From NCBI GenBank assembly GCA_965220075.1, contig OZ244806.1:2519925-2583924 (forward strand): a stretch of 64,000 nucleotides of DNA, given 5' to 3'. The position numbers and the translations under genes were made by a program. The notes below the pieces were generated by a model. The model saw only the letters and a list, made by a program, of their open reading frames with translations, did not search any database and was not told where the DNA came from. Below, in pieces: positions 1,792-64,000 of this stretch. Source of the DNA: Chloroflexota bacterium. Its GTDB lineage: Bacteria > Chloroflexota > UBA11872. Within the stretch, counting starts at the first letter, position 1; each line of letters starts with the position of its first letter.

Positions 1792-3414
1792 TCAGTAGGA
1801 CTGGAAGATCACGGCGCCTTCCTGGAGCCCGTCGGTGATTTCGATTTCGTCATCGCTGCGGATGCCGGTGCGCACCCGGATGCTGCGCCGCCGGCCGTCG
1901 ACCAGCGCCTCCACGAAATCGCGGTAGTTGACGGTCCGCACCGCGGTCAGGGGCACCTTCAACACGTCCTGCTTGACCTCCAGGGTGATCTTCAACGCGG
2001 CGCGCATGCCGATCTCGACCCCGGCGTCAGCCCAATCCACCGCGACCGTGGCCTCGTTGACGCGCGTGGTCCCTCCCCCGGGCGCGGAGATTTCGTGGGG
2101 CAGAACGACCAGCCGCCCCTTGAACACCTGTCCTTCCAAGCCGCCGATTACGACCTCCACGTCCTGCCCCACGGCCAGCAGATCCTCCTGCGCGCGGGGG
2201 ACAGACGCTTCGACCAGCAGCACGCTGGGATCGGCCATCTCGAGAATCTTGTCGGCCGGCTTGACCTCCCAGCCAGGCACGCGGACCACGTAGGTGACCA
2301 CGCCGTCGAACGGGGCCATGAGCTGGTGGTCCAGAGTTGGCTTTTGAAGCGATGCGAGTCGCGCACGGGCGGTATTGGCAGCCTCGCGCAGCAGGGCGGC
2401 ATCGCGGGCGTTGCCGGAGAATGCGGCCTGCAAGTCGGCCAGAGCGGTCTTGGCGGCGTCTCGCTCGATCGTGGCCGCCTGCAAGGCGCGCCGAGCGTGC
2501 TGCAAACTCGCTTCGTCCGCTTTCTTGCCCAGCTCCTCCAGGGCGCTCTCCGCCAGCCGCAGCTCGGCCTGCGCCACGCTCAGCGAGGCGCGCGCCGCCT
2601 GCAAGTCCGGAGGGCCTTCGGGACGCTCGAGCAAGCCGAGCCGGTAGCGGGCTTGCGCCAATGCCAGATCCACCCGCGCGGCGCTTTCCTCGGCCGCCGC
2701 TAGCGCCCGCTTGCCGCCCGGCCCCTGGGCGGTCCGCAGCGCGTCACGCTCCTCCTGAGCGGCCGCCGCCTCGAGCTCCCGCGCAGCCGCCTGCGCCCGG
2801 GCGGCCGCGATCGCTTGGGGGAGCGTGGTCTCGATGCGTTGGGCCGAGGCGGAGCGATCCGCGATCCCAGCCTCAGCAACAACCACGGCGGCCCGCGCGC
2901 TCGCAAGCTCCGCCGGGGAGGCCCCCGCGAGGAGCGTGTCGAGTTCCACCGCGCGCGCGCTGACCCGGTTCGCGGCGAGCAGGAGCTCTCGCTCGGCCGC
3001 CGCCTGCTCGGCCGCAAGCGCGGCCTGCGCCGACTTCAGCCGGTCCTCGGCACTCTTCAGCTCGGCACGCGCGGCGGCGATCTGGGCTTCACGATCGCCC
3101 GTGTCCAGCTGCGCCACGACATCGCCGACCCTTACTGCGTCGCCGCGCTTCACGTCGACCGTCTTGAGCACTCCCGGAACATTGAAGGACAAAGCCGCTT
3201 GCACCTCGGCCACAACGCGGCCATCCAAACGGACCGCCTGCTCGATCGGGCCGCGCTCGACCTCGACGGTGGGGCGGTCCAGAAAGCTGGGCGGGGCGGC
3301 TATAAGCGCGGGGGAACCAGCGCTGCCTTCGGGGCCGGACTCGCAGGCCGCGACAACGACGCCCGCCAAGAGCAACAGCGCGGCGCTTCGCAAGGTTCTA
3401 TTCACCACGGGCAC
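1792..3414 (-). CDS. HlyD-family efflux/secretion periplasmic adaptor (membrane fusion protein), lipoprotein-type N-terminus
   Basis: 540 aa. N-terminus LLLAGVVVAAC has a lipobox-like signal. It has a long Ala/Glu/Arg-rich coiled coil and a beta-barrel C-terminus typical of HlyD/MFP proteins. It is tightly coupled to the downstream permease. Confidence 0.85.
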   Translation of the reverse strand: MPVVNRTLRSAALLLLAGVVVAACESGPEGSAGSPALIAAPPSFLDRPTVEVERGPIEQAVRLDGRVVAEVQAALSFNVPGVLKTVDVKRGDAVRVGDVVAQLDTGDREAQIAAARAELKSAEDRLKSAQAALAAEQAAAERELLLAANRVSARAVELDTLLAGASPAELASARAAVVVAEAGIADRSASAQRIETTLPQAIAAARAQAAARELEAAAAQEERDALRTAQGPGGKRALAAAEESAARVDLALAQARYRLGLLERPEGPPDLQAARASLSVAQAELRLAESALEELGKKADEASLQHARRALQAATIERDAAKTALADLQAAFSGNARDAALLREAANTARARLASLQKPTLDHQLMAPFDGVVTYVVRVPGWEVKPADKILEMADPSVLLVEASVPRAQEDLLAVGQDVEVVIGGLEGQVFKGRLVVLPHEISAPGGGTTRVNEATVAVDWADAGVEIGMRAALKITLEVKQDVLKVPLTAVRTVNYRDFVEALVDGRRRSIRVRTGIRSDDEIEITDGLQEGAVIFQSY

Positions 3415-3523
3415 CTGGGTCTAGGGCATGCCGGCAGACGCGTCGTGCGCGAGCCAGCGGGATTCTACTGAGTCGCCGGGGCCGCAACGGCGGCAACGGG
3501 ATCCAAACGGCTATCGGACCGGG

Positions 3524-5615: not shown

Positions 5616-6821
5616 GTGCTGAAATCGGCAACGTACGAGGCGGGTAGTCGGCAAGTAAGGATCGAGGTCGAGCGGATCGACACCTGGCGCGAAGACCAGG
5701 GGTCGGTGGTCAATTTCCCGGGAGTCGTGCAGCTCGACGGCGACCGGCTCTACATGACCTACCACCGCGCGCGCCACGGCGCCGCCGAGGGCGAGCCTCT
5801 GCTCTCGGTGCTGTCAGACGATGGCGGGGCCAGCTGGCGCGACGCCCCGCGGGATTTCCCGCTGATCGGCATCAACCCCGCTAATGGCAAGAGCTACGTG
5901 GATTTCGACTCGGGCGTCCTGGGCTATCTCAAAGACGGCACCATCTGCCGGATCGATCACGACACGGTGGAAGCGGCAGAGGGTTACAAGGGTCGGGAGT
6001 CGGGCTCCTTCCACGAGGTAAGCCAGATCAGCGACCCGACTTTCGTGTGGCGGCGCTGGGCGCGCAACGGGGAGCGGATCGAGAGCTGGAACATCAAGGT
6101 GCGAGGGTTGCCGTTCGAGAAGGCTTCGTACCAGTCCTACGCGTCACTGCTGGAGCTCGAAGGCGGCGACTTTCTAACCGCGCTGGAGTGGGTGGCGATT
6201 CTGCCGGAGGACGAGTGGACCGTGGACAGCCGCGGGCGCACGCGCAAGACGTGCATCAACGTGTTCATAGTGCGTTCGTCCGACCGCGGCAAGACCTGGG
6301 ACTTCGTGCAAGCGTTCGACTCGCAGGTGCTCAAGCCTGTATACGGGCCGGGCGACCGGCCGCTGGATGAAGGCTTCGACGAGGCCGATCTGGCGGAGCT
6401 GCCCAACGGCGACATCCTTTGCGTGATGCGCACGGGCTCCTACTCGCCGATGTTCCAGTCGCGTTCCAGTGACGGAGGGCGTACCTGGTCGACGCCCGAG
6501 AACACCGGCTGGCAAGGCGTGCGGCCGCAGCTGCAAGTTCTGCCCAGCGGCGTGCTGGCCTGCTCGGCCGGGCGCGGGGCCTACGGCCACCCGCAGATCA
6601 CGCACGTGATGCTGAGCCTGGACGGCACGGGCCGCCACTGGGAAACACCCTTCGCTTTTCACACCGGACCGGGATGCTCCTATACGACGGCCTGGCAACG
6701 CGATGACAGGTTGCACGTTGCTTTCTCGCACTCCGACTTCACGCGCGAGCTGGGAACCAACGAGCTGCCGATCCAGGCGATCAGGCGGGCCGTGCTAGAT
6801 ATCCAGGTGCTGTCCGGCTGA
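5616..6821 (+). CDS. BNR-repeat (sialidase/exo-alpha-sialidase-like) glycoside hydrolase family protein
   Basis: 401 aa with a GTG start. It has repeated S-x-D-x-G-x-T-W 'Asp-box' motifs (SDDGGASW, SSDRGKTWD, SSDGGRTWS) characteristic of the BNR/sialidase beta-propeller. Confidence 0.75.
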   Translation: MLKSATYEAGSRQVRIEVERIDTWREDQGSVVNFPGVVQLDGDRLYMTYHRARHGAAEGEPLLSVLSDDGGASWRDAPRDFPLIGINPANGKSYVDFDSGVLGYLKDGTICRIDHDTVEAAEGYKGRESGSFHEVSQISDPTFVWRRWARNGERIESWNIKVRGLPFEKASYQSYASLLELEGGDFLTALEWVAILPEDEWTVDSRGRTRKTCINVFIVRSSDRGKTWDFVQAFDSQVLKPVYGPGDRPLDEGFDEADLAELPNGDILCVMRTGSYSPMFQSRSSDGGRTWSTPENTGWQGVRPQLQVLPSGVLACSAGRGAYGHPQITHVMLSLDGTGRHWETPFAFHTGPGCSYTTAWQRDDRLHVAFSHSDFTRELGTNELPIQAIRRAVLDIQVLSG

Positions 6822-6841: not shown

Positions 6842-9103
6842 CTACGGTGCCAGGATCAGGCGGGCGTCCGGGGGGAGCTTGCCGGCGTCGCGATCCAGCC
6901 TGACGGCGTGGTAGACGCCCCCATTCCAGGCCGCCAGCTGGTCGAGGTAATGCGGGCTGCCGGGATGCCCTGACTGGCCGGCGGTGTCCATGGCCCAGAT
7001 TCCCGCCGGTCTATCGGACAGGTCGGTCACCATCCGGTAGGCGACGGGCGCCCCGGATGTCGCGGTCTCGTGCGGCTCGCTGGGGAGCTCCCCGGTCGCG
7101 TTCGGTCCGGTCTGGGGCGCCACGCCGCCGAGCAGCTCATCGAGGTCGCCGCGGCCGGATAGCGGGTGGCTCAGCCGCAGCGGGTGGAGGCGCGCCCAGG
7201 ACCATGACTCCATTTCAGCGCCCAGACGCTCTGTGAGCTCATCCAGAGCGCTCCCAAACGCCGCGCGCACGGCGGCAAGGCGGTCACGCCCCTGGAACCA
7301 TCCGGCCGGATCGCCCGCCAGCGTAGCCAGCGCCAGCCCCGCGATCGCGCTGGCCAGGAACGCATCCAACTCGGCACCCGCCGGCGTCGAAGCGTCCAGA
7401 CGCAGGCGGGCGGACACAACCGCACGCGTCCAGTGTGAAAAAAAGACGTCGAAGATCGCCGCGGCCGCGCTCCCCGGCTCGCGCCTGTAGTCCCATTGCC
7501 CTAGAAGCGCGGCCGCGCGCCGAACGCGTGGCTGCGTGCCGCCTCGCAGCGCGCCGAGCAGCGCAGGCACGCCGTCAGCGGCGCGTAGAAACAGCGTGTC
7601 GGCCTGCATGCGGCGGCAATCGTCGGCGCTGAGGGTGCGCCGCTCTTCGAGCATCTGCCGGATGCGCCGGGCGCGATAGCCGGTGGGCGAGGTGCAGCTG
7701 AGCGGATAGGGGTAGTCGGCGGGCGCCGGTGGGTTGTTGGCGGTGACTATCCATCCGCTGGAGGGATCGCTCAGCGCCGGGAGCCGGTCGAATGGAACCA
7801 CGCCGCGCCATTCGTCCAGCGGGTCCCAGCCGCGCCGCAAGCCGCGCTCGGCACGGCGACGGACGGGAAGGTGTCCGGTCACCTGGTAGCCGATGCGGCC
7901 GTCGACGTCGGCGAACAGAACATTCAGGGTCGGCGTGGCCCAATCACGCAGCGCCGCGCGGAACGTCTCGCAGGAGTCCGCGCGACCGCCGGCGAGCAGC
8001 GACGTCAACCAGCCGCAGGGTTGCGATCCGGTCCAACGCAACGACGCCGGACCCAGGCCGCGCGCCGCGGCCGGCAGCAGCTCGTCGACGATAGGGCCGT
8101 GACGGGATGACTGGATCTGCTTCCGAATGACGCCGCCGCCTTTGACCGCTATCTCCTCGACACGCTCGCCGGCGGGTTCCCAGTCGCCATCGAAGCCGAA
8201 GCTGCCGGGATGCCGCGGGTCGGTGCGCTCCTGATAGAGGTCGCGCTGCGAGCAATTGTTGTTGGTGATGCCCCAGGCCACGCGCGGATTGCATCCGATA
8301 AGCACGGCGGGCAGGCCGGCGTAGGCGATTCCCGCCAGATCGAACGAGCCGCCGCACAAGCGCACCTGATACCACCAGGAGAGCGCACCGACGGCGACAT
8401 GGGGATCGCTGGCCAGCAGTGGGGCGCGCGACGCGCTGCGCGCGGGCGCCACCACCCAGTTGTTGCTGCCCGGTCCGCAGTCGGGCCCGCCGGTGGGCGG
8501 ACCGGCCACGGCGGCGGGGAGAGGCCGGTAGGAGCCAGGCGGAAGGATGGTCTCGTCGCCCGCTTCAGCCGCCAGGAAGGCTTCGTACAACCGGCCTTCA
8601 CCCAGCGCGCGCCTGGCCAGCTCGGGGATGACGATGAGAGGCAAACGGCCGGACAGGTACCAGCGGAGCTCACCCATGACGGCCAGCCAGTCCAGGGATC
8701 GGAACGGCTGGGGCGTGTAGCCGAGCAGATCGAACTCGATAGGCAGCCGGTCGCGCGATTCCTCCAGCAGCGCGTTTGCTCCGTCGGTGAAGGCGTCGAG
8801 CAGGCGAGCGGTTTCGGCTGGAAGCGCTTCGAGCTCCGCGCGCGCTATCGCGGGCAAGCCGATCGTGCGCGCCAGCACGTCGGACTGCAACGCCTCCGGT
8901 CCCAGCGCTTCGGCGAGCCGGCCGAGGGCTCTGCGGCGCAGGTAGTCGAGTTGCCAGAGACGATCCTGGGCCATGGCGTAGCCGAAGCCCGTGAAAAGGT
9001 CGCGGTCGCCGGCGGCAAAGACGTGGGGGATGCCGAACGCGTCGCGCCGGATCTCGACCGCCGCGTCGACCGGCGCCCGGCCGCGGCCGTCGACGGACGG
9101 CAC
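6842..9103 (-). CDS. Penicillin acylase family protein (Ntn-hydrolase; penicillin amidase/AHL-acylase-like)
   Basis: 753 aa. Conserved N-terminal block PHVFAAGDRDLFTGFGYAMAQDRLWQLDYLRR. An internal GSNNWVV motif supplies the Ser N-terminal nucleophile of the beta subunit. No obvious signal peptide. Confidence 0.9.
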   Translation of the reverse strand: MPSVDGRGRAPVDAAVEIRRDAFGIPHVFAAGDRDLFTGFGYAMAQDRLWQLDYLRRRALGRLAEALGPEALQSDVLARTIGLPAIARAELEALPAETARLLDAFTDGANALLEESRDRLPIEFDLLGYTPQPFRSLDWLAVMGELRWYLSGRLPLIVIPELARRALGEGRLYEAFLAAEAGDETILPPGSYRPLPAAVAGPPTGGPDCGPGSNNWVVAPARSASRAPLLASDPHVAVGALSWWYQVRLCGGSFDLAGIAYAGLPAVLIGCNPRVAWGITNNNCSQRDLYQERTDPRHPGSFGFDGDWEPAGERVEEIAVKGGGVIRKQIQSSRHGPIVDELLPAAARGLGPASLRWTGSQPCGWLTSLLAGGRADSCETFRAALRDWATPTLNVLFADVDGRIGYQVTGHLPVRRRAERGLRRGWDPLDEWRGVVPFDRLPALSDPSSGWIVTANNPPAPADYPYPLSCTSPTGYRARRIRQMLEERRTLSADDCRRMQADTLFLRAADGVPALLGALRGGTQPRVRRAAALLGQWDYRREPGSAAAAIFDVFFSHWTRAVVSARLRLDASTPAGAELDAFLASAIAGLALATLAGDPAGWFQGRDRLAAVRAAFGSALDELTERLGAEMESWSWARLHPLRLSHPLSGRGDLDELLGGVAPQTGPNATGELPSEPHETATSGAPVAYRMVTDLSDRPAGIWAMDTAGQSGHPGSPHYLDQLAAWNGGVYHAVRLDRDAGKLPPDARLILAP

Positions 9104-35497: not shown

Positions 35498-35912
35498 GGG
35501 TCGGGGGTACGTCAATCCAGCGGCGTGTGCCGGCCGCTTCAAGGGCGGCATCGATGACCTGCTGTATGCGGAGTCCGTCCATCAGGATAGGCGGTGCTTC
35601 GCGGTTCTCCCGAATGCAGTCCACAAACCCAAGCCTTATGCGCTCGCCGAAGTACGCAGGGGTGCGGGCGCGATCGGCGTCGTCCAGTGGCAGTCCCGGG
35701 TCGACAAATTCAGCAAAGCGCCCCAGCCGGTGGATCATGGCCCGCAGCACGCCGTCGGTCAAAATGCCGGCGCCACGCTCCCGATTCGGGCCGGCGATGG
35801 CTGCTACGCCGGCGTTGGGCACCGTATGGAGTCCTTGCGCGCTGTTGCAGGGCATTCGGCGAGCGCATGGCCGCAGATGGCGGCGGTCTAGACCTGAAAT
35901 CGTGTGCCGGAA

Positions 35913-35957
35913 CCCACACCCGGAATTGAACCGGGGACCTCGTTCTTACCAAGGACT
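35913..35957 (-). repeat. 45-nt direct repeat of the 3' half of tRNA-Thr(GGT), anticodon loop to acceptor end (putative attR of an integrated island)
   Basis: CCCACACCCGGAATTGAACCGGGGACCTCGTTCTTACCAAGGAC versus the genuine tRNA at 56526-56601 CCCACACCCGGAATTGAACCGGAGACCTCGTTCTTACCAAGAAC (about 43/45), in the same orientation. No 5' half is present, so this is not a functional tRNA. Confidence 0.7.
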
Positions 35958-35959
35958 TC

Positions 35960-36026
35960 GCTGCCAGCGCTGTGGCATGTACCAGGGGACCGCGAGCGAA
36001 ACGCAGCAAATTATGGTGTGGTGCGT
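35960..36026. repeat. 67-bp repeat R3 adjacent to the tRNA-half repeat; second copy at 53674-53741
   Basis: GCTGCCAGCGCTGTGGCATGTACCAGGGGACCGCGAGCGAAACGCAGCAAATTATGGTGTGGTGCGTT versus GCTCCCAGCGCTGTGGCATGTACCAGGAGACCCCGAGCGAAACGCATCAAATTATGGTGTGGTGCGTT (about 62/67). Contains the CAAAnnTATGGTGT motif that also occurs twice just 3' of the genuine tRNA-Thr. Confidence 0.7.
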
Positions 36027-50275: not shown

Positions 50276-50548
50276 GAAGAACAGTGTGGCTCCTTCGCTC
50301 GATACCGGCATGGACAGTCCCGATCCTACTCAGGGAGGACTGGTTCAACGCTTGGGTTGTCGGGTAGCCCGGTCGCGGCGACAGCCCCGCCTCACAGTCC
50401 CTGTCTTGAGGGAATCCCACGCTGCGTGCAGCGTGGGCCACCGAGCCATACACTGCACGAGTGCCTAATACTGTTAGGAATGCTCTGAAAAAGCCCGGTG
50501 GTTGCGGCAGGGCCTATGCTCACGAGCGACGGATAGCCGCTGAGGGCC

Positions 50549-50887
50549 ATGATGCCGCCGCAACGCTCATTTGCCGACGTGGAGTATGACGGACAGCCGC
50601 GCCAGACGCGGCGGGAGCGCTTTCTGCAGCGCATGGACGCGCTGATGCCGTGGGCGCGGCTCGAAGCGCGCATCCGGCCGGTCTACCCCACCGGCGAGCG
50701 CGGGTGGCTCCCCTACCCGCTGGCCCTGCTGCTGCGGCTTCACGGCGTGCAGGTGTTCTACAACCTCAGCGACCCGGCGATGGAAGACGCGCTCTATGAC
50801 AGCGCGGCGGTGCAGCGGTTCGTGGAGCTGACCGCGCGGGGGCCGCGGCCCGATGAGACGACGAGGCGCCGGTGTTCGGCGGGCTGA
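50549..50887 (+). pseudogene. IS5-family transposase N-terminal (DUF772) fragment
   Basis: SFADVEYDGQPRQTRRERFLQRMDALMPWARLEARIRPVYP...GWLPYPLALLLRLHGVQVFYNLSDPAMEDALYD matches the IS5 transposase N-terminal domain. No DDE domain follows. Confidence 0.6.
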
Positions 50888-53360: not shown

Positions 53361-53673
53361 GATCGTCTCCCCCGCTGCTGGGAGTCTGTCCGAGAAACAA
53401 TGTTCTAAACCATATGCGTCATTAGTGGAGTGTAAAGATGCTAATTACTCCACGACAAAGTCCAGATTGCTATAAGCAGGTTATTGCGTGGCGTTTTTCG
53501 TCTCCAGGAACGAATCCTCGGACAGGCTCCTAGCAGGTTTGAACAAGTTTCCTTTTGCTCCCACGTCCATACAGGTGCAGTTCCCTCAAGGCTGCCGACA
53601 TCGCATCTTCTCCCAACAGCTCCCACAGACTAAACAGGAAGTGCTCGCCCAAACTATAGTTACCAACTATTTT

Positions 53674-53741
53674 GCTCCCAGCGCTGTGGCATGTACCAGG
53701 AGACCCCGAGCGAAACGCATCAAATTATGGTGTGGTGCGTT
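53674..53741. repeat. Second copy of 67-bp repeat R3 (see 35960-36026)
   Basis: About 62/67 identity to copy 1, in the same orientation. Not accompanied by a tRNA-half. Confidence 0.7.
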
Positions 53742-56525: not shown

Positions 56526-56601
56526 TGGAGCCCACACCCGGAATTGAACCGGAGACCTCGTTCTTACCAAGAACGCGCTCTACCGACTGAGCTATGTGGG
56601 C
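56526..56601 (-). tRNA. tRNA-Thr (anticodon GGT), CCA encoded
   Basis: The reverse complement folds canonically: acceptor GCCCACA/TGTGGGC, D-arm GCTC-AGTCGGTA-GAGC, anticodon stem CGTTC/GAACG with loop TTGGTAA, T-arm TCCGG-TTCAATT-CCGGG, CCA. Two CAAAnnTATGGTGTCTT motifs lie within 85 nt of its 3' end. Confidence 0.9.
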
Positions 56602-57830: not shown

Positions 57831-57907
57831 TGGAGCCCAAGGTGGGGCTCGAACCCACAACCTGCGGTTTACAAAACCGCCGCTCTGCCGATTGAGCTAC
57901 CTGGGCC
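57831..57907 (-). tRNA. tRNA-Thr (anticodon TGT), CCA encoded
   Basis: The reverse complement gives acceptor GGCCCAG/CTGGGCT, D-arm GCTC-AATCGGCA-GAGC, anticodon stem GCGGT/ACCGC with loop TTTGTAA, T-arm GTGGG-TTCGAGC-CCCAC, CCA. Confidence 0.8.
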
Positions 57908-57979
57908 TGAATCTGTTACGCAGTCAGCATATGATCGACTTGCCCTCATCTGCGCAAGTTTTGCGCAAGTCCTTCCTGC

Positions 57980-59101
57980 TCATCGAGTCAACACCGCTTC
58001 GAGGGCGCGCGCAGCTTCGTGCTTCGCATCCATCGCTATGTGTCCGTAAGTGTCCTTCGTGACCTGGATGCTCGCGTGCCCAAGCAACTCGCTGACGATG
58101 GCCAGTGGCACGCCAGCGCTGAGCATTAGGCTGGCACAGCAGTGACGAAGGTCGTGCCAGCGCATGCGTGCCACGCCAGCTTGCTCAAGCGCCCTGTGAA
58201 AGCGTCGGAGGACGTTACGTGGATCCTGCTCGGTACCGGTGGCTGACGGAAACACTAGGTCGCGGTCGTCCCATTCGGGTCCAGCAAGAAGTCGTTGCCC
58301 AATCTGGCGGCCACGGTGTCCGCGCAGCGCACGAACGAGATCGGGTGCCAGCGGCACAACTCGATCACTCGTGCGTGTCTTGGTCGGCACCACCAGAATC
58401 CCTACATTCGGCATTCGTGTCACCGATCGCGTTATGCGAGCGGTTTGACCATCCAGATCGACATCGGACCAGCGTAAGCCCAGCAGCTCACCCTGACGAA
58501 CACCTGTGAAAGCGGCGAACCTAACCTCGTACTCAACCGGCGTCCCTTCCACCGCTCGCAGGACAGCAAGCACACGCTCAATGCTCGGTACCTCAACCAC
58601 GCGCCGTGGCACGGTTGGAGGGATAACAGCGCGTGCCACGTTGCCTGCGACCATCTTCAGACGAACCGCATCTTCGAGTGCCTTGTGCAGCACTCGATGG
58701 ACGTGAACGATCGTACGCGGATGTAGACCGCCACTCTTGCCGTCACGCCTACCCGACACCGCTGCCCGCGCGTACAAGTCTTGAATTTCCATCGGATGTA
58801 GGCGGCCCATCTTCCGGTCGCCAATGTGTGGAATTATGTGAAGTTCCGCCAGTTGTCCGTACCGCCTCACCGTTCTTGCCGACGCATGCGTTCCATGTTG
58901 CGCCAACCAGTGGTGCAGATACTCGGCAACCGTGAGGTTCTGAGCGTCGAAGAGGATTCCTCCCTCAAGTTCGCGTCGACGCTTGTCAGCGCGCGCCAGC
59001 GCCTCGCGTTTCGTCGCTGCCGATCTGGCCACTGTACGCTTCAGAACTTGACTGTAGACACGGCATTGCCAACGTCTGCCGCGCTTCTCAAAACTAGCCA
59101 T
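57980..59101 (-). CDS. Site-specific tyrosine integrase (phage-integrase family)
   Basis: About 373 aa from ATG 59101, with a GGAGG RBS. N-terminal SAM-like/core-binding domain and C-terminal catalytic domain with R...HDLRHCCASLMLSAGVPLAIVSELLGHASIQVTKDTYGH (R-H-R-Y tetrad region). Confidence 0.9.
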   Translation of the reverse strand: MASFEKRGRRWQCRVYSQVLKRTVARSAATKREALARADKRRRELEGGILFDAQNLTVAEYLHHWLAQHGTHASARTVRRYGQLAELHIIPHIGDRKMGRLHPMEIQDLYARAAVSGRRDGKSGGLHPRTIVHVHRVLHKALEDAVRLKMVAGNVARAVIPPTVPRRVVEVPSIERVLAVLRAVEGTPVEYEVRFAAFTGVRQGELLGLRWSDVDLDGQTARITRSVTRMPNVGILVVPTKTRTSDRVVPLAPDLVRALRGHRGRQIGQRLLAGPEWDDRDLVFPSATGTEQDPRNVLRRFHRALEQAGVARMRWHDLRHCCASLMLSAGVPLAIVSELLGHASIQVTKDTYGHIAMDAKHEAARALEAVLTR

Positions 59102-59111
59102 TGATTTCCTC

Positions 59112-59300
59112 CTACATACCAGCGCGCTCCCGGATAAATCGGAGCAGCGCCTCACGTGGAATGCGGTAGTCGCGCCCCCCTAACTTGAAGCTGGGGAGTT
59201 CGCCGCTGCGAATCATTTCGTAAATCGTCTTGCGCCGACACCGAAGAAGTTCGGCGCACTCGGTCGGTGTGAACACGACCTGATTGATGTCGACGGTCAC
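59112..59300 (-). CDS. Excisionase-family DNA-binding protein (HTH, MerR-like Xis)
   Basis: 62 aa. FTPTECAELLRCRRKTIYEMIRSGELPSFKLGGRDYRIPREAL matches the excisionase DNA-binding domain. Lies immediately upstream of int. Confidence 0.75.
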   Translation of the reverse strand: MTVDINQVVFTPTECAELLRCRRKTIYEMIRSGELPSFKLGGRDYRIPREALLRFIRERAGM

Positions 59301-59743
59301 GCCGCCAACCTGTCAGACTCCGACACATGGGGCCGCCCTGATCCGCCGTTTCGTGGAAGGCCGGGGTTGCTACCGTTCACCATTCGCACCCACACTATCG
59401 TTCGCCCAGTCCTGGCCGGATTTCTGCGAAGTCACAGCGCCCTGCCTACCGTTAACTCGACGGCGGCCCCCAATGACGCGCGAGCGACGCCGGCCGAGCA
59501 CAGGTGCAGAAGCAGACGCGACCGCCTGATTGGGCGTTGCGGATTTGACAGCCGGTCCATCCGCAAACGTGCCGGTAGACGCACGGGCTGATGAGATGCT
59601 GCAATCAACGCCTCGCATGGGCGAGTCTAGGCTGGCGACGACCGATCTGGGAATACAGGTTTCTGGAATCCCAATCGGATCCCTTGCACGCCGAGGGTCC
59701 CACCGGCGGGCAGCCGCAACTCACGAACGCCACACGGCCCGGA

Positions 59744-60259
59744 TCATCGCCGCCGCAGGGTGTTGAGCACGGGAGCCAGCATGGGAACCAGCGATGCCGG
59801 CGTCGGGCATTCGATGAATCGGTTGCCGAAATGGTTGCGCATGTCCGTCCGGTTCTCCCCCTCGAGCCCCAGCCCCAGCCCCAGCACTTCGGTCCGGGCC
59901 TCGGCCGCATGACGGTTCAGCCGCACGACCGTGTATGGATCCTCGTGCCGCCCATCGTGGATGACCACCAGCACCTTCACAGGCTCCGGCCGGGCCCTCA
60001 TCTGCTTCAGCATCCGCGTATAGGACGGCCCCACGCGGCTCCCGGTTTCGGCCTGCAGCCCCGCCGGTCGCTCCAAGGCCGGCTCCGACGCGTCGTCCAT
60101 GCCGAGCAGCGGGTCCGCGCCCTCGAACGCGACCACCGCGTGCCAGATACCCAGCTGCGCACAGGCCAAGTGCAGCGTGGCCGCCGCCACGCGGGCGGCC
60201 ACCATACGCACGATCTCTATCGAGCCCGAGCAGTCCAGCAGGACACCGATCGCCCCCCT
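59744..60259 (-). pseudogene. von Willebrand factor A (vWA) domain protein relic lacking a start codon
   Basis: The reading frame opens directly onto the MIDAS motif (AIGVLLDCSGSIEIV...), with a TGA two codons upstream and no ATG/GTG/TTG. The remaining about 170 aa follow the vWA pattern (VKVLVVIHDGRHED...). Confidence 0.5.
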
Positions 60260-60441
60260 TCAGCATCCGGCTCAAGCTCGTGCTGGACCACGAAGGGGGT
60301 GGCGTCCTGACTGCGGATCACGGCGCGCCTACTCAGACGGCCATGGCGGTTGCTTCACTCGAGCGTGTGCATCAACGGTGGCAGGTCGAGCGGCTCGGCG
60401 TTACGCATAAGGGGGCTAGGCGGCGCCAGGTGTCCCACGCT

Positions 60442-61632
60442 GGAGACCTTTGAATAATTGGGGATGGAGCGCGTGGGGAGGGGCATCGGCAACGCCTGGA
60501 GGCCGGCGCGGCGTCCGGTCGGGCGGGCCGGCACGAGATCCCGTGCCGCGGGACCCCGCGCGCGGCGCACTGGTCCCGCGGTCAGCCCGTGGCCCAGGCC
60601 AGGGTGTCCGCTTTGCGCAGGTTGTAGGCCATGAGCTTGAACCACAGCTCCACGGTGTTGCGCCCCAGCCCGCGGTAGCGCACCCGCTGGTAGCCATAGC
60701 TGCGCTTGAGGGTGCCGAAGACCTTCTCCACCAGCGCCCGGCGGGGCGCGATGAGGGCGTTACGCCGCTGCTGCCAGACGGGGAGCGCCCGTTGGTGTTT
60801 GTGGGAGCGGTGCATGATCCGGTCGTTGATCCCCTGGGCCTGCAGCCACCGGCGCCGGCGCGTGGACTCGTAGGCCCGATCGCCGTACACCGCCCGCTCG
60901 TCCCCGCTCACCAAGGCGTCGGCCACCTCGCTCTCGGAGACGTTGGCGGGGGTCAACGCCGCCCGCCGCACCACGCCCGTGTCCGCATCCACCCCAGATG
61001 CACCTTGTAGCCAAAGTGGGAGCGGCCGCCCCGCCCCCGTTGGGTCCACGCCGCCTCTGGATCGGTGGCACTCGGCGCCCCGCGCCCCGCCGCCAGCGGC
61101 GGGCGCCGCACCTGCGCCGCCACCAGGGTGGCGTCCAGCAGCGTGCCCTGCTTCAGCACCAGGCCCTGCGTGTCCAGTTGCGCCGCCAGCTCCGTAAACA
61201 ACGGCGCGCTGAGCCCGTCGACCTCCAACGCCTGGCGAAAGCGGCTGATGGTGGAGTGGTCCGGCGTGGCGTCCTGCAGGCCCAGCCCCACAAAGCGCCG
61301 GAAGGAGAGCCGGTCGCCCAGCGCCTCTTCCAGCTGGGGGTCCGAGAGGCTGTACCACTGCTGGAGCAGCAGCACCTTGACCATCAGCAGCGGCGGATAG
61401 CTGGGCCGCCCGCGCGGGGCGGCGTGCACGCCCGCCACGACCTGCCCGAGCCGCTCCCAGTCCACCGCGTCGTCGATCCGCTCCAGCCGCTGGTTCTGGC
61501 CCAGCGTCTCCGACACCACCGCTTCCGCCAGCGACGGCCGGCCCATGTCCCGGTGCATACGACTTCTCCCCCATCATCCGCCTGGCGACGCCCAATACTC
61601 CGCTCCGCCCCCGGATTTACGCAAAGGTCTCC
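60442..61632 (-). mobile_element. IS5-family insertion sequence (about 1.19 kb) with 16-bp TIRs GGAGACCTTTGMRTAA and a frameshifted transposase
   Basis: TIRs at 60442-60457 (GGAGACCTTTGAATAA) and 61617-61632 (TTACGCAAAGGTCTCC). The transposase N-terminal (DUF4096/DUF772) part is ORF 60953-61558, and the DDE part (GDRAYES...) is in another frame at 60582-about 61000. This is either a programmed frameshift, as in the IS427/IS1031 groups, or inactivation. Confidence 0.7.
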
Positions 61633-61784
61633 AAGAGCGGGACCTGGCAGATCGAATTGCAGACCTTGATGCTGAGCTCGAGCGTCTGAATGCTGAATGA
61701 GATCAGCATGAGACGGAACTGGCCGCAGAAGGAGAGAGAGCCGATAAGGGGATCCGACGAGCTATCTGGGCCGATGGCGATGAG

Positions 61785-62153
61785 TTGATCGCTGCGGTCG
61801 GGAAGGTGCTTGCTGACCTCGGATTCGCGGTGCGCGACATGGACGCAGAGTTAACGGAAGGCGAGCCGAAGCGTGAAGACCTGCGGCTGGCGCTTAAGGA
61901 CGAGCCTGGGTGGCAAGCGATGGTTGAAGTAAAGGGCTACAGCAGCGGCACAAAGACAAACGACAATCGCCAAATCCGTGAGCACCGCGAACGCTACATC
62001 CTAGAGGAGGGCCGACTGCCTGACCTGACGGTGTGGCTCGCCAACCCATATCGGCGGATGGACCCTTCCACAAGGCCTGCTCCCGACCAAAATGTGAAAG
62101 ACGCCGCCGTGGCTGTCGACGCTGTCCATGTGCTTGCGACAGATCTCTACTAG
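61785..62153 (+). CDS. hypothetical protein (TTG start; weak PD-(D/E)xK-like D...EVK motif)
   Basis: 122 aa. VRDMDAE...AMVEVKGY. No ATG or GTG is available in frame after the upstream stop at 61698-61700. Confidence 0.4.
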   Translation: MIAAVGKVLADLGFAVRDMDAELTEGEPKREDLRLALKDEPGWQAMVEVKGYSSGTKTNDNRQIREHRERYILEEGRLPDLTVWLANPYRRMDPSTRPAPDQNVKDAAVAVDAVHVLATDLY

Positions 62154-62584
62154 CAGTGGGCGCTGGTCGCAGCGGGAAGCCTTGACGCAGGAGCTGTTGG
62201 CCGGAGCTTGGTGAATGCCGATCCCGGCCTGTGGACTCCGCCGGTCTCAGGTTCCGGCACCTAGCTCGATTCGTTGCAACTGACTCACGGGGAATTAGTG
62301 GCCTGGAGCGCTCGGAGCTACGAGCTTCTCGCTGGGCATTCCAAATGCAGAGGGGTGGCGGCACGTAGCGAGTGCTGCTGCCTTGGACATTCGCAACTCA
62401 ACCGCGCCGAATAAGGGAGATTGGTGGCTCAGTTTCCTCGAATCGACACCGTGACCTTCTAGGAGTTATCCGATCTACGGAGGTCAACTCCGAGAGCGAG
62501 ACACATGACCTGTTTCAGCCATTGCCATCGTGGCACCGTTGATCAGAGTCCATTCCGTGATCGAAATAGACTCCTGGTGTCGAA

Positions 62585-63610
62585 TTACCGCGGAGCTCTA
62601 ACTCGGTGCGATATGGACTGACCCACGCCTCTAAGGGACAGCGCAAGACCACCGTCGAAACGCAGCCAGGCCTGGTCAGGCGAAAATACATCGTCTGGTA
62701 TATAGCAAAACACCGGAATTCCCACTTCTTCTTTTTTCTGCCAGATGGACGTGTCTTTAGTCAGTTCCCGGTATAGATGCAGAGCGGTCTGGATGACTAT
62801 TGCATGGCTGTACCGCACGCCACACATCGTTAGGTGGCTCAGAATGTGAATCTCGCGATCCTTCACGACTCTGAGTCTGGCTCTGTCCTTGTCTCCCTCC
62901 GGGAGCATCAGCCGCTGCACAGGTGGGGAGTGAGCCGCTTCGGTGTTGACCGTTACCCTTATGACATCCTTCAGAGTGACCCCCCGGTTGTCGAAAAGCA
63001 CCAGCTGCTGTCCGAGCCAGCGGTCACAGTCGAACCCCTGATCGGACTCGGACTCGAACAACCCCTCCGGCTTTAACGTCCACGGCGTTTCCGGCGTTGC
63101 TTTGTTGAGCCAATCCGTCATCCCGGATAACGGCCACTCGATGACGAAACTAAGCGGCTGTGGGCCCATGGGAAGAACATGCGTAGCCTCCGGCTCCCTG
63201 GTCTGCTCATCCAGTTTCGACAACTCCATGTAGCCGCCTCTTACGTCCACTGGAGCAAGGGTCAGGGTCCTCCGGTTGCTTGGGACCTTCCGGATCCTGC
63301 TGAAGCCCAGTTTCGCCATCTGACAAGAGTCGCCGTCCAGCAAGCGCGGGCTCCGGTCGTCGCCGAGCACCAACTTCCTCAGAAAAATGGAGCAATGCCT
63401 TGCCAGAGATGCGACTGTATCGCTGAGCTGATCGGGTGGCTGGCTTCCGCATCCGTCGATTACCAGTTGGAGGTCAACCATTGCTTCTCGAATTCTCTCT
63501 GCCTTGTCTCGGTTTCCTACGGTCACCGGGCTCCCTGTTGTTTTGACAAACTGTACTGGTTGCTGTGAATCTGCCTTTTCTCCAACGTCGGCCATGGCTA
63601 GCTCCTCCAT
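62585..63610 (-). CDS. hypothetical protein (341 aa), lower-GC cargo gene
   Basis: Long clean ORF at about 55% GC in a 67% GC background. No recognisable domain. Confidence 0.5.
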   Translation of the reverse strand: MEELAMADVGEKADSQQPVQFVKTTGSPVTVGNRDKAERIREAMVDLQLVIDGCGSQPPDQLSDTVASLARHCSIFLRKLVLGDDRSPRLLDGDSCQMAKLGFSRIRKVPSNRRTLTLAPVDVRGGYMELSKLDEQTREPEATHVLPMGPQPLSFVIEWPLSGMTDWLNKATPETPWTLKPEGLFESESDQGFDCDRWLGQQLVLFDNRGVTLKDVIRVTVNTEAAHSPPVQRLMLPEGDKDRARLRVVKDREIHILSHLTMCGVRYSHAIVIQTALHLYRELTKDTSIWQKKEEVGIPVFCYIPDDVFSPDQAWLRFDGGLALSLRGVGQSISHRVRAPR

Positions 63611-63786
63611 CCGCCAATCCGAGAGTGAACAGATATCGTTCTCATTGGTGAGGCCTCCTCCGTGTGGCCATCATTGTCGCCGCTGCGCTGCATTCTCCAT
63701 ACGGGGCTTAGGACATGGATTCGCTCAGGAGAAAAGTGAGCGCGCCGACAGGAAGTCATCAGAAAAGTAAACGCTGTCGGGACTGG

Positions 63787-63862
63787 TGGACCGAATTGGA
63801 CTCGAACCCACGACCTCCGCAATGCGAGTGCGGCGCTCTTGCGCCTGAGCGTCGGCCCGTCG
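63787..63862 (-). tRNA. tRNA-like gene, probable tRNA-Ala (anticodon CGC) with non-canonical T-stem; CCA encoded
   Basis: Reverse complement GGGCCGA-C-GCTC-AGGCGCAA-GAGC-G-CCGCA-CTCGCAT-TGCGG-AGGTC-GTGGG-TTCGAGT-CCAAT-TCGGTCC-A-CCA. The acceptor and anticodon stems pair well. The T-stem 3' strand CCAAT pairs poorly with GTGGG, and only one nucleotide separates the acceptor and D stems. Could be a degenerate or fragmentary tRNA. Confidence 0.4.
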
Positions 63863-64000
63863 GCGGTAGTTTAGGCCGCGTCCGGCACGTGCACCTGCGT
63901 CCGCCAGCGATCGCGCTCGGAGACAACGTGACTCTCGGTGAGCGAGAGGCATTATCTACCGACGGCTCACTCTTCGGTACGCCACCATCCCGCCGACTAC

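Follow-up and report, generated by a model that had tools for sequence, protein, structure and literature searches.

In the 64-kb stretch of DNA that was analysed (the window), we found a tRNA-Thr(UGU) gene (57831-57906, minus strand; ARAGORN call tgt, Rfam tRNA score 69 bits) next to a tyrosine integrase gene (int; 57980-59101, minus strand) whose stop lies exactly 73 bp from the tRNA 5' end, just where the first-pass annotation had placed it. The long int reading frame covers 57980-59155, and the likely start (MASFEK) at 59101 yields an intact protein of 373 residues. This protein matched PF00589 (E=1e-25), PF14659 (E=3.7e-9) and phrog_1 (E=3e-73), its catalytic residues R202, K241, H316, R319, H342 and Y352 show no variation across the family alignment, and the exact protein is also present on the 3.25-Mb contig L001. 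Beside it lies an intact excisionase-type HTH_17 protein of 62 residues (xis; 59112-59300, minus strand; PF12728, E=3.3e-17; excisionase PHROGs). The earlier reading as mobile-element DNA with an intact int and xis holds, and all features listed in that first pass are present, with small coordinate corrections. Between int and the tRNA, 57907-57979 (minus strand) is the putative P arm of an attachment site, judged by its motif and by relatives, with tandem arm-type repeats (ACTTGCGCA-AA-ACTTGCGCA) at 57951-57970; this motif pair is found a single time in the window, where chance would yield 0.

On the other side of xis, a vWA-like pseudogene (59744-60442, minus strand) abuts an IS5-family insertion sequence of 1190 bp (60443-61632, minus strand). 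The Pfam VWA match of the pseudogene is weak (E=0.007, under the curated cut-off), yet its homology to a 216-aa gene, intact in the related locus L006, is clear. Its start codon was removed by IS5, consistent with the start-less vWA domain that had been noted before, and tblastn additionally divided the gene between two reading frames, the shift falling after ...ELEPD, and showed an in-frame stop (TGA). The IS5 element, likewise recognised earlier, contains orfA (DUF772; 60953-61558) and orfB (DDE_Tnp_1; within 60582-61000) in overlapping frames, as well as 11-bp terminal inverted repeats, GGAGACCTTTG, read from the sequence at 60443-60453 and 61622-61632. No target-site duplication was present, the flanks being CTG and AAG. 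Logan contigs break at 60469 and 61603, 26-29 nt inside the IS5 ends, which suggests that the IS is multicopy.

IS5 separates two unrelated genes that both face away from it and that both lack their 5' ends. The second of these, to its right, is a 3' fragment (61635-62153, plus strand) corresponding to residues 219-390 of a ~427-aa family with a D...EVK motif, whose full-length relatives have about 420-450 aa. The fragment runs in a single frame from the IS edge; its 5' end is truncated by IS5, a TGA at 61698-61700 lies in frame, and it ends prematurely. It shows 90% amino-acid identity to the same residues of a 427-aa gene in locus L183. It includes one of the two open reading frames to the right of IS5 (61785-62153, plus strand); the other (62585-63595, minus strand) encodes a probably intact protein of 336 aa that belongs to a conserved orphan family, with 136 homologues at 43-100% identity, 0 of 136 with a Pfam domain. 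We found no match for this protein in Pfam, NCBIfam, PADLOC or PHROG, nor for its AF2 model (pTM 0.81) in the PDB.

At the right-hand end lies a tRNA-like sequence (minus strand) that ARAGORN called as tRNA-Ala(cgc). The first-pass annotation had correctly described its T stem as defective, which we trace to a G51.A63 mismatch, and its 3' end as facing int; its coordinates are 63784-63858 and not 63787-63862. The same annotation had also proposed this gene as the true target of a single element (about 57980-63786). Such an element of ~5.8 kb, inserted at the tRNA-Ala-like 3' end (63784) and reaching 57980 with int-xis at its distal end, would agree with a tRNA-like 3' end that points into the segment, with the lower GC between this gene and int (locally 54-61% vs 63-70% in most adjacent host DNA) and with a size near the 6.9 kb of the L006 element. 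We nevertheless consider it very unlikely, as nothing in 57907-57980 or elsewhere in the window was found to repeat the tRNA-Ala 3' end, the integrases of this family always adjoin an intact tRNA, and IS5 lies between its two truncated neighbours without a target duplication. Moreover, locus L183 shares the right-hand part (61633-63557) at about 90% identity and has the full-length 427-aa gene there, but lacks int and xis, and the homology stops at 61632, the IS5 edge. The tRNA-like gene is also a decayed paralogue of tRNA-Ala(CGC), duplicated together with an upstream rpmA (ribosomal protein L27) fragment: it scored 40.8 bits with Rfam vs 69.2 for the intact L183 orthologue, it carries six changes (including U8/A9 loss, D-loop changes and T-stem C62A), the stretch joining the acceptor and D stems is one nucleotide short, and its minimum-free-energy fold is not a cloverleaf. 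A decayed rpmA 3' end (approximately 63871-63957, minus strand), identified by alignment to L183, adjoins it directly upstream, and rpmA 3' end, spacer and tRNA together are 86% identical to L183 over 162 nt. By these alignments, the tRNA-Ala-like gene is a probable pseudogene and not an attachment site, and 61633-63957 is a different, older unit than the int element.

A second possibility raised in the first pass, that int-xis forms the edge of a larger prophage running past the window end, could appeal to L004, which among canonical relatives is the closest: this prophage encodes an S24 repressor, a Gp3-like protein and DUF5131, all placed upstream of its xis-int. On contig L001, however, which extends 5.1 kb past the window, the pseudo-tRNA-Ala is joined by a membrane protein, KatG and PQQ dehydrogenases, and no phage gene families were matched between xis and the tRNA-Ala-like gene; hence we give this possibility almost no credence.

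The relatives of the integrase account for its position on the 5' side of the tRNA. The usual arrangement is that an integrative element carries the 3' part of a tRNA gene. Among 50 integrase-family loci with a tRNA no more than 300 bp from the int stop, the tRNA lies on the strand opposite to int in 38 and on the same strand (mirror) in 12, at similar distances; the 5' side, which the first-pass annotation had termed atypical, is thus the rarer arrangement, and the window element shows the usual geometry in mirror image. Throughout the family, int and its intact tRNA are ~60-130 bp apart with tandem arm sites between them, and repeats analogous to the ACTTGCGCA pair were present 3' of int in every locus examined for them; the window arrangement fits this pattern. 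In canonical loci with both ends captured, the direct repeat spans tRNA nt 32-88 (L014), 33-82 (L036) or 33-77 (L117). Both ends fell inside the retrieved DNA for only 2 of the 12 mirror loci, where the repeat is instead the tRNA 5' half: L006 repeats nt 1-38 (E=6e-11), and L119 repeats nt 1-41 (100% identity, E=2e-19). The L006 arm sites, AGACTTGCGCAAA[GA]ACTTGCGCA, are placed ~105 bp inward of the left repeat at one end and ~56 bp ahead of the right tRNA at the other, the L119 arm sites (two copies of TGGCTGTCAAA) occupy the same relative positions, and the canonical loci have the same architecture. L006 further shares with the window the arm motif, xis (85% nt identity), the vWA-like gene (74% nt) and int (59% aa); judged by these matches, its element is of the same type.

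A second copy of the window's element occurs in L185, at a different tRNA-Thr(UGU) locus. From the truncated vWA-like gene through xis and int to the P arm, the two copies share 92% nt identity, with a single substitution in the P arm. Identity is complete over tRNA nt 1-46, four changes follow within nt 47-67 (nt 47, 56, 59/60 and 67), and past the tRNA there is no homology. The vWA frameshift is common to both copies, while the in-frame stop is absent from L185; an attL was not found within 10 kb in L185. The L185/L001 mosaic could in principle come from homologous recombination ending in the conserved tRNA. Strain L100 is 97-99% identical to the window downstream and lacks int, but it retains a diverged (about 60-75%) remnant of the int 3' end, one arm site and a P arm. 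Its identity to the window leaps to 97-100% starting at tRNA nt 1, the sole difference in the tRNA being at nt 16, in the 5' half, and its left flank is wholly different, with PhyH genes.

That the int/tRNA-Thr adjacency is no attachment junction, and arose from homologous recombination or an unrelated rearrangement by a conserved tRNA, seems highly improbable to us. Although tRNA genes are conserved enough to act as recombination endpoints, and the locus is rearrangement-prone, with three different left flanks among the window, L100 and L185, the int-tRNA spacing and tandem arm sites fit the family pattern, in L006 and L119 the 5' half is directly repeated without change and arm sites accompany each end, and the same junction was found at two different tRNA-Thr loci. 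Through these repeats and the second copy, the 5'-side attachment geometry is proven, at the level of sequence comparison, to be genuine and recurrent.

We conclude that 57831-60442 is probably the int-proximal end of a small integrative element targeting tRNA-Thr, comprising attR, int, xis and one cargo pseudogene, with its far end lost and the right part separate. The integrase would recombine within the tRNA-Thr anticodon loop (nt 32-38; 57869-57875, minus strand), because this loop is the segment common to the displaced repeats of the mirror and canonical relatives, which stop at nt 38 or 41 and start at nt 32-33, respectively. The attP would bear the tRNA 5' half (nt 1 to ~38) preceded by the ~73-bp P arm with its two tandem arm-type sites. 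After integration, the functional tRNA would be a hybrid of element 5' half and host 3' half just downstream of int and in the same orientation, with the host 5' half and its promoter displaced to the far end, beside a P' arm with a second arm-site pair. The relatives show how the repeats are arranged, that arm sites lie at both ends and that the 5' half moves with the element; L185, together with the L006 and L119 repeats, points to a crossover in the anticodon loop and a 5' half supplied by the element. In the window, the intact tRNA-Thr would accordingly be attR-like, with nt 1 to ~38 (57906-57869) derived from the element and 57868-57831 from the host. Because no virgin attB for this tRNA was found, the crossover is bracketed to nt 17-46 rather than mapped, and its exact point would lie within the loop. 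A search for a sigma-70-like promoter in the interval from int to the tRNA found none; transcription of the hybrid may now start from element sequence, in the P arm or by read-through from xis-int.

As IS5, without a target duplication, joins unrelated decapitated genes, we suggest that an IS-associated deletion or rearrangement removed or separated the left two-thirds of the element along with attL. The element boundaries could not be closed, as had been stated before: no displaced tRNA-Thr 5' half or second arm pair is present in the 64-kb window or in the 5 kb beyond it on L001. An element that was split rather than truncated, by an IS5-mediated inversion or translocation that put attL and the left genes elsewhere in the chromosome, is an improbable variant. 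It could draw on the missing duplication, as expected from recombination between two IS copies, on the apparently multicopy IS and on the different L100 flank. It is disfavoured by the lack of a 5' half or arm pair over the 57 kb to one side and the 10 kb to the other, by L185 similarly having no nearby attL, and by the decay of the vWA-like gene. With the far end lost, int and xis are intact but belong to a remnant that could not excise, because it has no partner site within reach.

A close comparison is with canonical anticodon-loop integration in the same integrase clade, as in prophage L004 at tRNA-Thr(UGU), whose int is 64% identical to that of the window, and in L014, L036 and L117. These share the crossover sublocation and the tandem arm sites that follow int, with another pair 105-155 bp in from the opposite end, but the tRNA orientation is flipped relative to int and arms; the window element appears to carry nt 1-38 where the canonical ones carry nt 32 through the 3' end, and must therefore also supply transcription signals. 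SXT/R391 integrates into the 5' end of prfC, replacing the 5' end of its target gene and supplying a new promoter. The likeness in 5'-end replacement is one of analogy only, as SXT/R391 targets a protein-coding gene and differs in integrase and element class. Klebsiella pneumoniae islands upstream of the arg2 tDNA, a noted exception to downstream integration, also occupy the 5' side of their target tRNA gene, but by description use the D-loop sublocation and a different integrase clade (bioRxiv 10.1101/2020.11.02.365908). In the Islander database (Hudson, Lau and Williams 2015, PMC4383910), 159 of 3919 islands have a displaced 5' fragment, vs 3760 with 3' fragments. Those 159 likewise combine a tyrosine integrase with an attachment site centred on the anticodon loop, a tRNA regenerated by the island and a 5' fragment displaced upstream. 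L006 and L119 fully fit this description, while the window copy, without a displaced fragment, would not be called by Islander, its host is an uncultured high-GC soil lineage, probably Chloroflexota by the names of homologues, and the element is very small, intact relatives measuring 5.5-8 kb. Overall, the window seems to hold an ordinary case of a decayed element, one whose geometry is instructive and whose type is rare yet already catalogued.

The DNA to the right of tRNA-Thr(UGU) is a stranded remnant of a tRNA-Thr integrative element of the mirror type, i.e., one that carries the 5' half of its target tRNA where the canonical type carries the 3' part, fused by an IS5 element to an unrelated, older segment. 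ARAGORN reported four tRNA genes in the window, and the three that matter here all lie on the minus strand, namely tRNA-Thr(ggt) at 56526-56601 and tRNA-Thr(tgt) at 57831-57906, both within 66-69 bits in Rfam, and a tRNA-Ala(cgc)-like gene at 63784-63858. Between the outer two we found an intact tyrosine integrase (57980-59101; PF00589 and PF14659), an HTH_17 excisionase (59112-59300; PF12728), a vWA-like ORF with a weak profile match, an IS5-family element (60443-61632) whose transposase is split across two frames, and two ORFs without any family match. The GC content is ~63-70% in most of the adjoining host DNA, 58-62% in int-xis and 54-61% in the right-hand ORFs. The features listed by the first-pass annotation are all present, including the gap of 73 bp between the integrase stop and the 5' end of tRNA-Thr(tgt); its reading of the segment as mobile-element DNA holds, whereas the target and the extent that it proposed were misidentified, the segment being composite at IS5.

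The proposed target was the tRNA-Ala-like gene, which does have the defective T-stem described for it, in the form of a G51.A63 mismatch. Its acceptor and D stems are separated by one nucleotide only; it has further lost U8/A9, has an altered D loop and does not adopt a cloverleaf as its MFE fold; G3:U70 is kept, and the Rfam score is 40.8 bits at a gathering threshold of 29. Compared with an intact gene there are six differences, comprising U8/A9, two D-loop bases, one anticodon-loop base and C62A in the T-stem. We looked for repeats of its 3' end by a general repeat search, by local alignment and by matching of 25-mers and 14-mers that tolerated up to three mismatches; none occurs near int or elsewhere in the window, the only similarity being the generic one among tRNA T arms. 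In L183, a relative of ~90% nucleotide identity that shares the DNA right of IS5, a true tRNA-Ala(CGC) of 69.2 bits lies downstream of rplU-rpmA and a second, decayed copy is flanked by katG and by a 336-aa-gene homologue. The gene in the window is the counterpart of this decayed copy and is preceded by a decayed fragment encoding the L27 C terminus; hence, it is most likely a pseudogene within an old duplication. We also considered that it might be a chimeric att product, which would account for the T-stem mismatch, and rejected this since the defects occur in both halves and the rpmA fragment was co-duplicated. The duplicated unit, consisting of the rpmA 3' end and tRNA-Ala(CGC), occupies 63784-63957 in the window and 3319-3480 and 7665-7766 in L183, where the intact and decayed copies bracket a 4.2-kb segment with katG. 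This segment resembles a Campbell-type insertion arising through homologous recombination, suggesting that katG was gained horizontally.

The integrase and its excisionase are intact, and both are identical in the window and in L001, a near-identical 3.25-Mb contig. The catalytic domain of the integrase matches PF00589 at E=1e-25, and R202, K241, H316, R319, H342 and Y352 are invariant in an alignment of 20 sequences, completing the R-K-H-R-H/W-Y set of a tyrosine recombinase. Directly upstream of int lies the small HTH_17 excisionase (PF12728, E=3.3e-17), which also matched excisionase PHROGs; the same xis-int arrangement occurs in three relatives (L004, L007 and L185). Tandem 9-bp repeats located 10-30 bp past the int stop are putative integrase sites of the arm type, and such repeats are present at both arms of L006, L119, L014, L036 and L117. 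Judged from sequence, they are predicted binding sites of the kind that a heterobivalent integrase would use. The nearest integrases are 57-64% identical and come from soil metagenome contigs, and a scan of GTDB returned no integrase above 41% identity, and thus no close genome there.

Two comparisons locate the junction between element and host. In L185, a contig from the sample that also yielded L001, a second copy of the element comprises the vWA-like pseudogene (vWA'), xis, int and the P arm (57907-57979 in the window, between the int stop and the tRNA) at 92% nucleotide identity beside a different tRNA-Thr(tgt) locus. The two copies agree across tRNA nt 1-46 and, save for one SNP, across the P arm, whereas tRNA nt 47, 56, 59/60 and 67 differ and homology ends at the tRNA 3' end, which argues that the tRNA 5' half travels with the element. 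The second comparator, L100, a strain without int that was found through a protein search, is 97-99% identical to the window through the cupin/bcp region; of the element it keeps the P arm, a single arm site and a diverged stretch from the 3' end of int. Its identity climbs to 97-100% from tRNA nt 1 onward, with nt 16 as the sole difference within the tRNA. Combining L185 and L100, we can bracket the probable junction to tRNA nt 17-46. On these alignments, the element in the window belongs to the mirror subclass, defined by an element-borne tRNA 5' part and a host-borne 3' part. A metagenome scan with the neighboring cupin gave only relatives of 36-42% and therefore no empty site. A separate 30-nt fragment of L185 (14163-14192) looks like the 3' part of a tRNA-Thr (87% identity to nt 45-74); it sits in direct orientation between two ~930-aa genes, 2.9 kb past the 3' end of the intact tRNA, and could be what is left of a canonical att site.

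The far end of the element is gone. No second tRNA-Thr 5' half or pair of arm motifs was detected in the window, L001, L100 or L185, so that attL and the left-hand genes are absent locally from the window, as they are from L185 and L100. Likewise, nt 1-38 of tRNA-Thr(UGU) occur just once in the window and in L001, with no other displaced fragment of this tRNA in either, and the window therefore contains a remnant, not a complete island. If retained anywhere, the displaced end would be predicted to consist of a fragment resembling GCCCAGGTAGCTCAATCGGCAGAGCGGCGGTTTTGTAA followed ~105 bp on by two copies of ACTTGCGCA. A scan of viral contigs for the arm-motif pair returned unrelated matches, with no integrase of the family and no free attP. 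The direct repeats that the first-pass annotation had proposed as a check were found for neither tRNA in the window. Its alternative, a larger prophage extending past the window, is contradicted by L001 (99.6% identical to the window), in which the next 5.1 kb encode a membrane protein, KatG and PQQ dehydrogenases; we found no phage structural, replication or lysis genes within the segment.

Relatives of the integrase show what the complete arrangement looks like. We gathered 160 loci with an integrase of this family, drawn from the genomes of GTDB and from IMG/VR; 50 loci, counting those from protein look-ups, have a tRNA no more than 300 bp away from the stop of int, on the strand opposite to int in 38 and on the same strand in 12, mostly 60-130 bp away in both groups. 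Among loci whose fetched DNA held both ends, three are canonical, with repeats of tRNA nt 32-88 (L014, Leu(cag)), 33-82 (L036, Leu(taa)) and 33-77 (L117, Arg(acg)), and two are mirror, with repeats of nt 1-38 (L006, Thr(cgt)) and nt 1-41 at 100% identity (L119, Leu(taa)). The anticodon loop is the only repeat segment common to both classes. In all five, a tandem arm-type pair beside int is matched by another pair located 105-155 bp inward from the opposite end, and this arm-to-core architecture is conserved across the two geometries. L006 resembles the window in layout, with int followed by a tRNA-Thr(cgt) whose 5' end points toward int, an xis of 85% and a vWA-like gene of 74% nucleotide identity, and the tandem motif ACTTGCGCA...ACTTGCGCA just past int. 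Its direct repeat joins a fragment at 677-715 to the intact gene at 7621-7695 (37/39 aligned positions, E=6e-11), and the tandem motif recurs ~105 bp inside the left repeat. L006 and L119 each have an intact tRNA gene, a displaced fragment in direct orientation and an integrase between them, which is the configuration used by Islander. In a neighbor-joining tree, whose deep branches are unreliable, mirror loci occupy at least six separate positions, and the integrase of the window is sister to that of L004, a prophage ending in an integrase that faces the 3' end of tRNA-Thr(tgt), i.e., canonically. Both geometries hence occur within one integrase family, even between sister integrases on the same tRNA-Thr(UGU). 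A more complex layout was seen in L059, a Thermobaculum MAG, where an inverted tRNA-Ala(cgc) 3' fragment comes directly after int, a full tRNA co-oriented with int comes next, and the tRNA 3' end occurs once more 3.2 kb farther downstream (2401-2427, 2501-2582 and 5714-5735). An inversion or a tandem of elements may lie behind this layout.

Profile matches within 59301-63784 were limited to the transposase of the IS5 element, which has 11-bp inverted repeats (GGAGACCTTTG), a DDE_Tnp_1 domain (PF01609, E=7.5e-24) and an N-terminal DUF772 domain (PF05598, E=4.3e-27). It lacks a target-site duplication (flanks ...CACGCTG and AAGAGCG...), consistent with deletion or recombination after insertion. 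To its left, the vWA-like gene has lost its start and contains a frameshift and a stop relative to the intact 216-aa gene of L006. The frameshift is shared with L185 and the stop is not, indicating that the gene was damaged before the two copies diverged. The vWA label is provisional: the fragment matches Pfam VWA at E=0.007 (17 bits, cut-off 23.8), the intact L006 homologue likewise falls below the cut-off, and L185 has a 507-aa paralogue with a weak VWA_2 match. Right of IS5, one continuous frame extends from the IS edge as far as 62153, interrupted by a single in-frame TGA; it corresponds to residues 219-390 of a 427-aa gene of L183 at 90% identity, from a family of usually 420-450 aa. As homology to L183 stops at the IS5 edge, where its 427-aa gene is complete and int and xis are absent, IS5 joins two unrelated units, in each of which a gene reading outward from it has lost its 5' end, a pattern characteristic of deletion or rearrangement associated with an IS. 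The two ORFs and the intact L006 vWA homologue gave no phage-function match, the latter having one weak match to a PHROG of unknown function, and no function was assigned to the cargo.

The truncated ORF (61635-62153; 9218-10501 in L183) belongs to a widespread ~430-aa family (762 representatives at E<=1e-3) whose members have a coiled-coil segment and, C-terminally, a D...EVK motif resembling a PD-(D/E)XK nuclease; because the L183 gene is convergent with the 336-aa gene, the two may form a two-gene system. A different IS5-family element at ~50.5 kb (50470-50864) is 83% identical to L006 765-2165 and occurs twice in L185 (5950-8658), directly left of the vWA' pseudogene and ~15-45 bp from the insertion point of the unrelated IS5 of the window. 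The start of the vWA-like gene appears to be an IS hot spot.

Other islands and assembly differences lie nearby. In L100 (5606-8231), the anticodon loop of tRNA-Thr(ggt) is interrupted by a 2.5-kb insertion that carries a pentapeptide-repeat gene. Its ends are of the canonical type, with the intact tRNA at one and a displaced fragment of nt 32-76 at the other; the window has the corresponding empty site at tRNA-Thr(ggt) (56526-56601). Two further copies of the conserved ~75-bp arm preceding that fragment occur at 35909-36025 and 53660-53739; the former is joined to a tRNA-Thr(ggt) 3' fragment, suggesting that the ~20.6 kb downstream of this tRNA are an old island or tandem array, a region in which no integrase of the same family as int was found. 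Relative to L001, the window lacks ~375 bp (L001 15531-15905) at 53571/53572 in the ankyrin-repeat gene region, and SNPs between the two are concentrated in the ankyrin genes at 53.6-54.9 kb.

Mirror integration would displace the native promoter of the host along with the tRNA 5' half, and the hybrid tRNA-Thr(UGU) would then be driven by the P arm and/or by read-through from xis-int; scanning the interval from int to the tRNA for promoters gave none. We tentatively raise the possibility, which we consider rather unlikely, that tRNA-Thr(UGU) depends on element DNA for its 5' half and transcription, so that, if the gene is single-copy, the int-proximal end could not be deleted and would act as a built-in addiction. 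Such an addiction, if true, would account for the survival of an int-xis-P-arm stub at four loci where the rest of the element has decayed, and would cover L100, where just a ~100-190 bp P-arm remnant remains.

Overall, the integrase on the 5' side of the tRNA reflects a real and recurrent attachment geometry, not an annotation oddity, to which the tRNA-Ala-like gene is irrelevant. Two geometries with a conserved architecture fit symmetric sites in the anticodon loop that are usable in either orientation, for which L006 (6.9 kb) and L119 (8.1 kb) offer compact natural substrates. Island finders that scan only downstream of tRNAs will overlook mirror elements. The geometry itself has precedent: the configuration filter of Islander explicitly permits 5' fragments upstream of the tDNA, and its catalog counts 3760 islands that have 3' tDNA fragments versus 159 that have 5' fragments (PMC4383910), while a Klebsiella study described islands upstream of arg2 as an exception (bioRxiv 10.1101/2020.11.02.365908). 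Given the Islander counts, the mirror geometry is known yet rare (~4%), and the element described here is a decayed new member of it.
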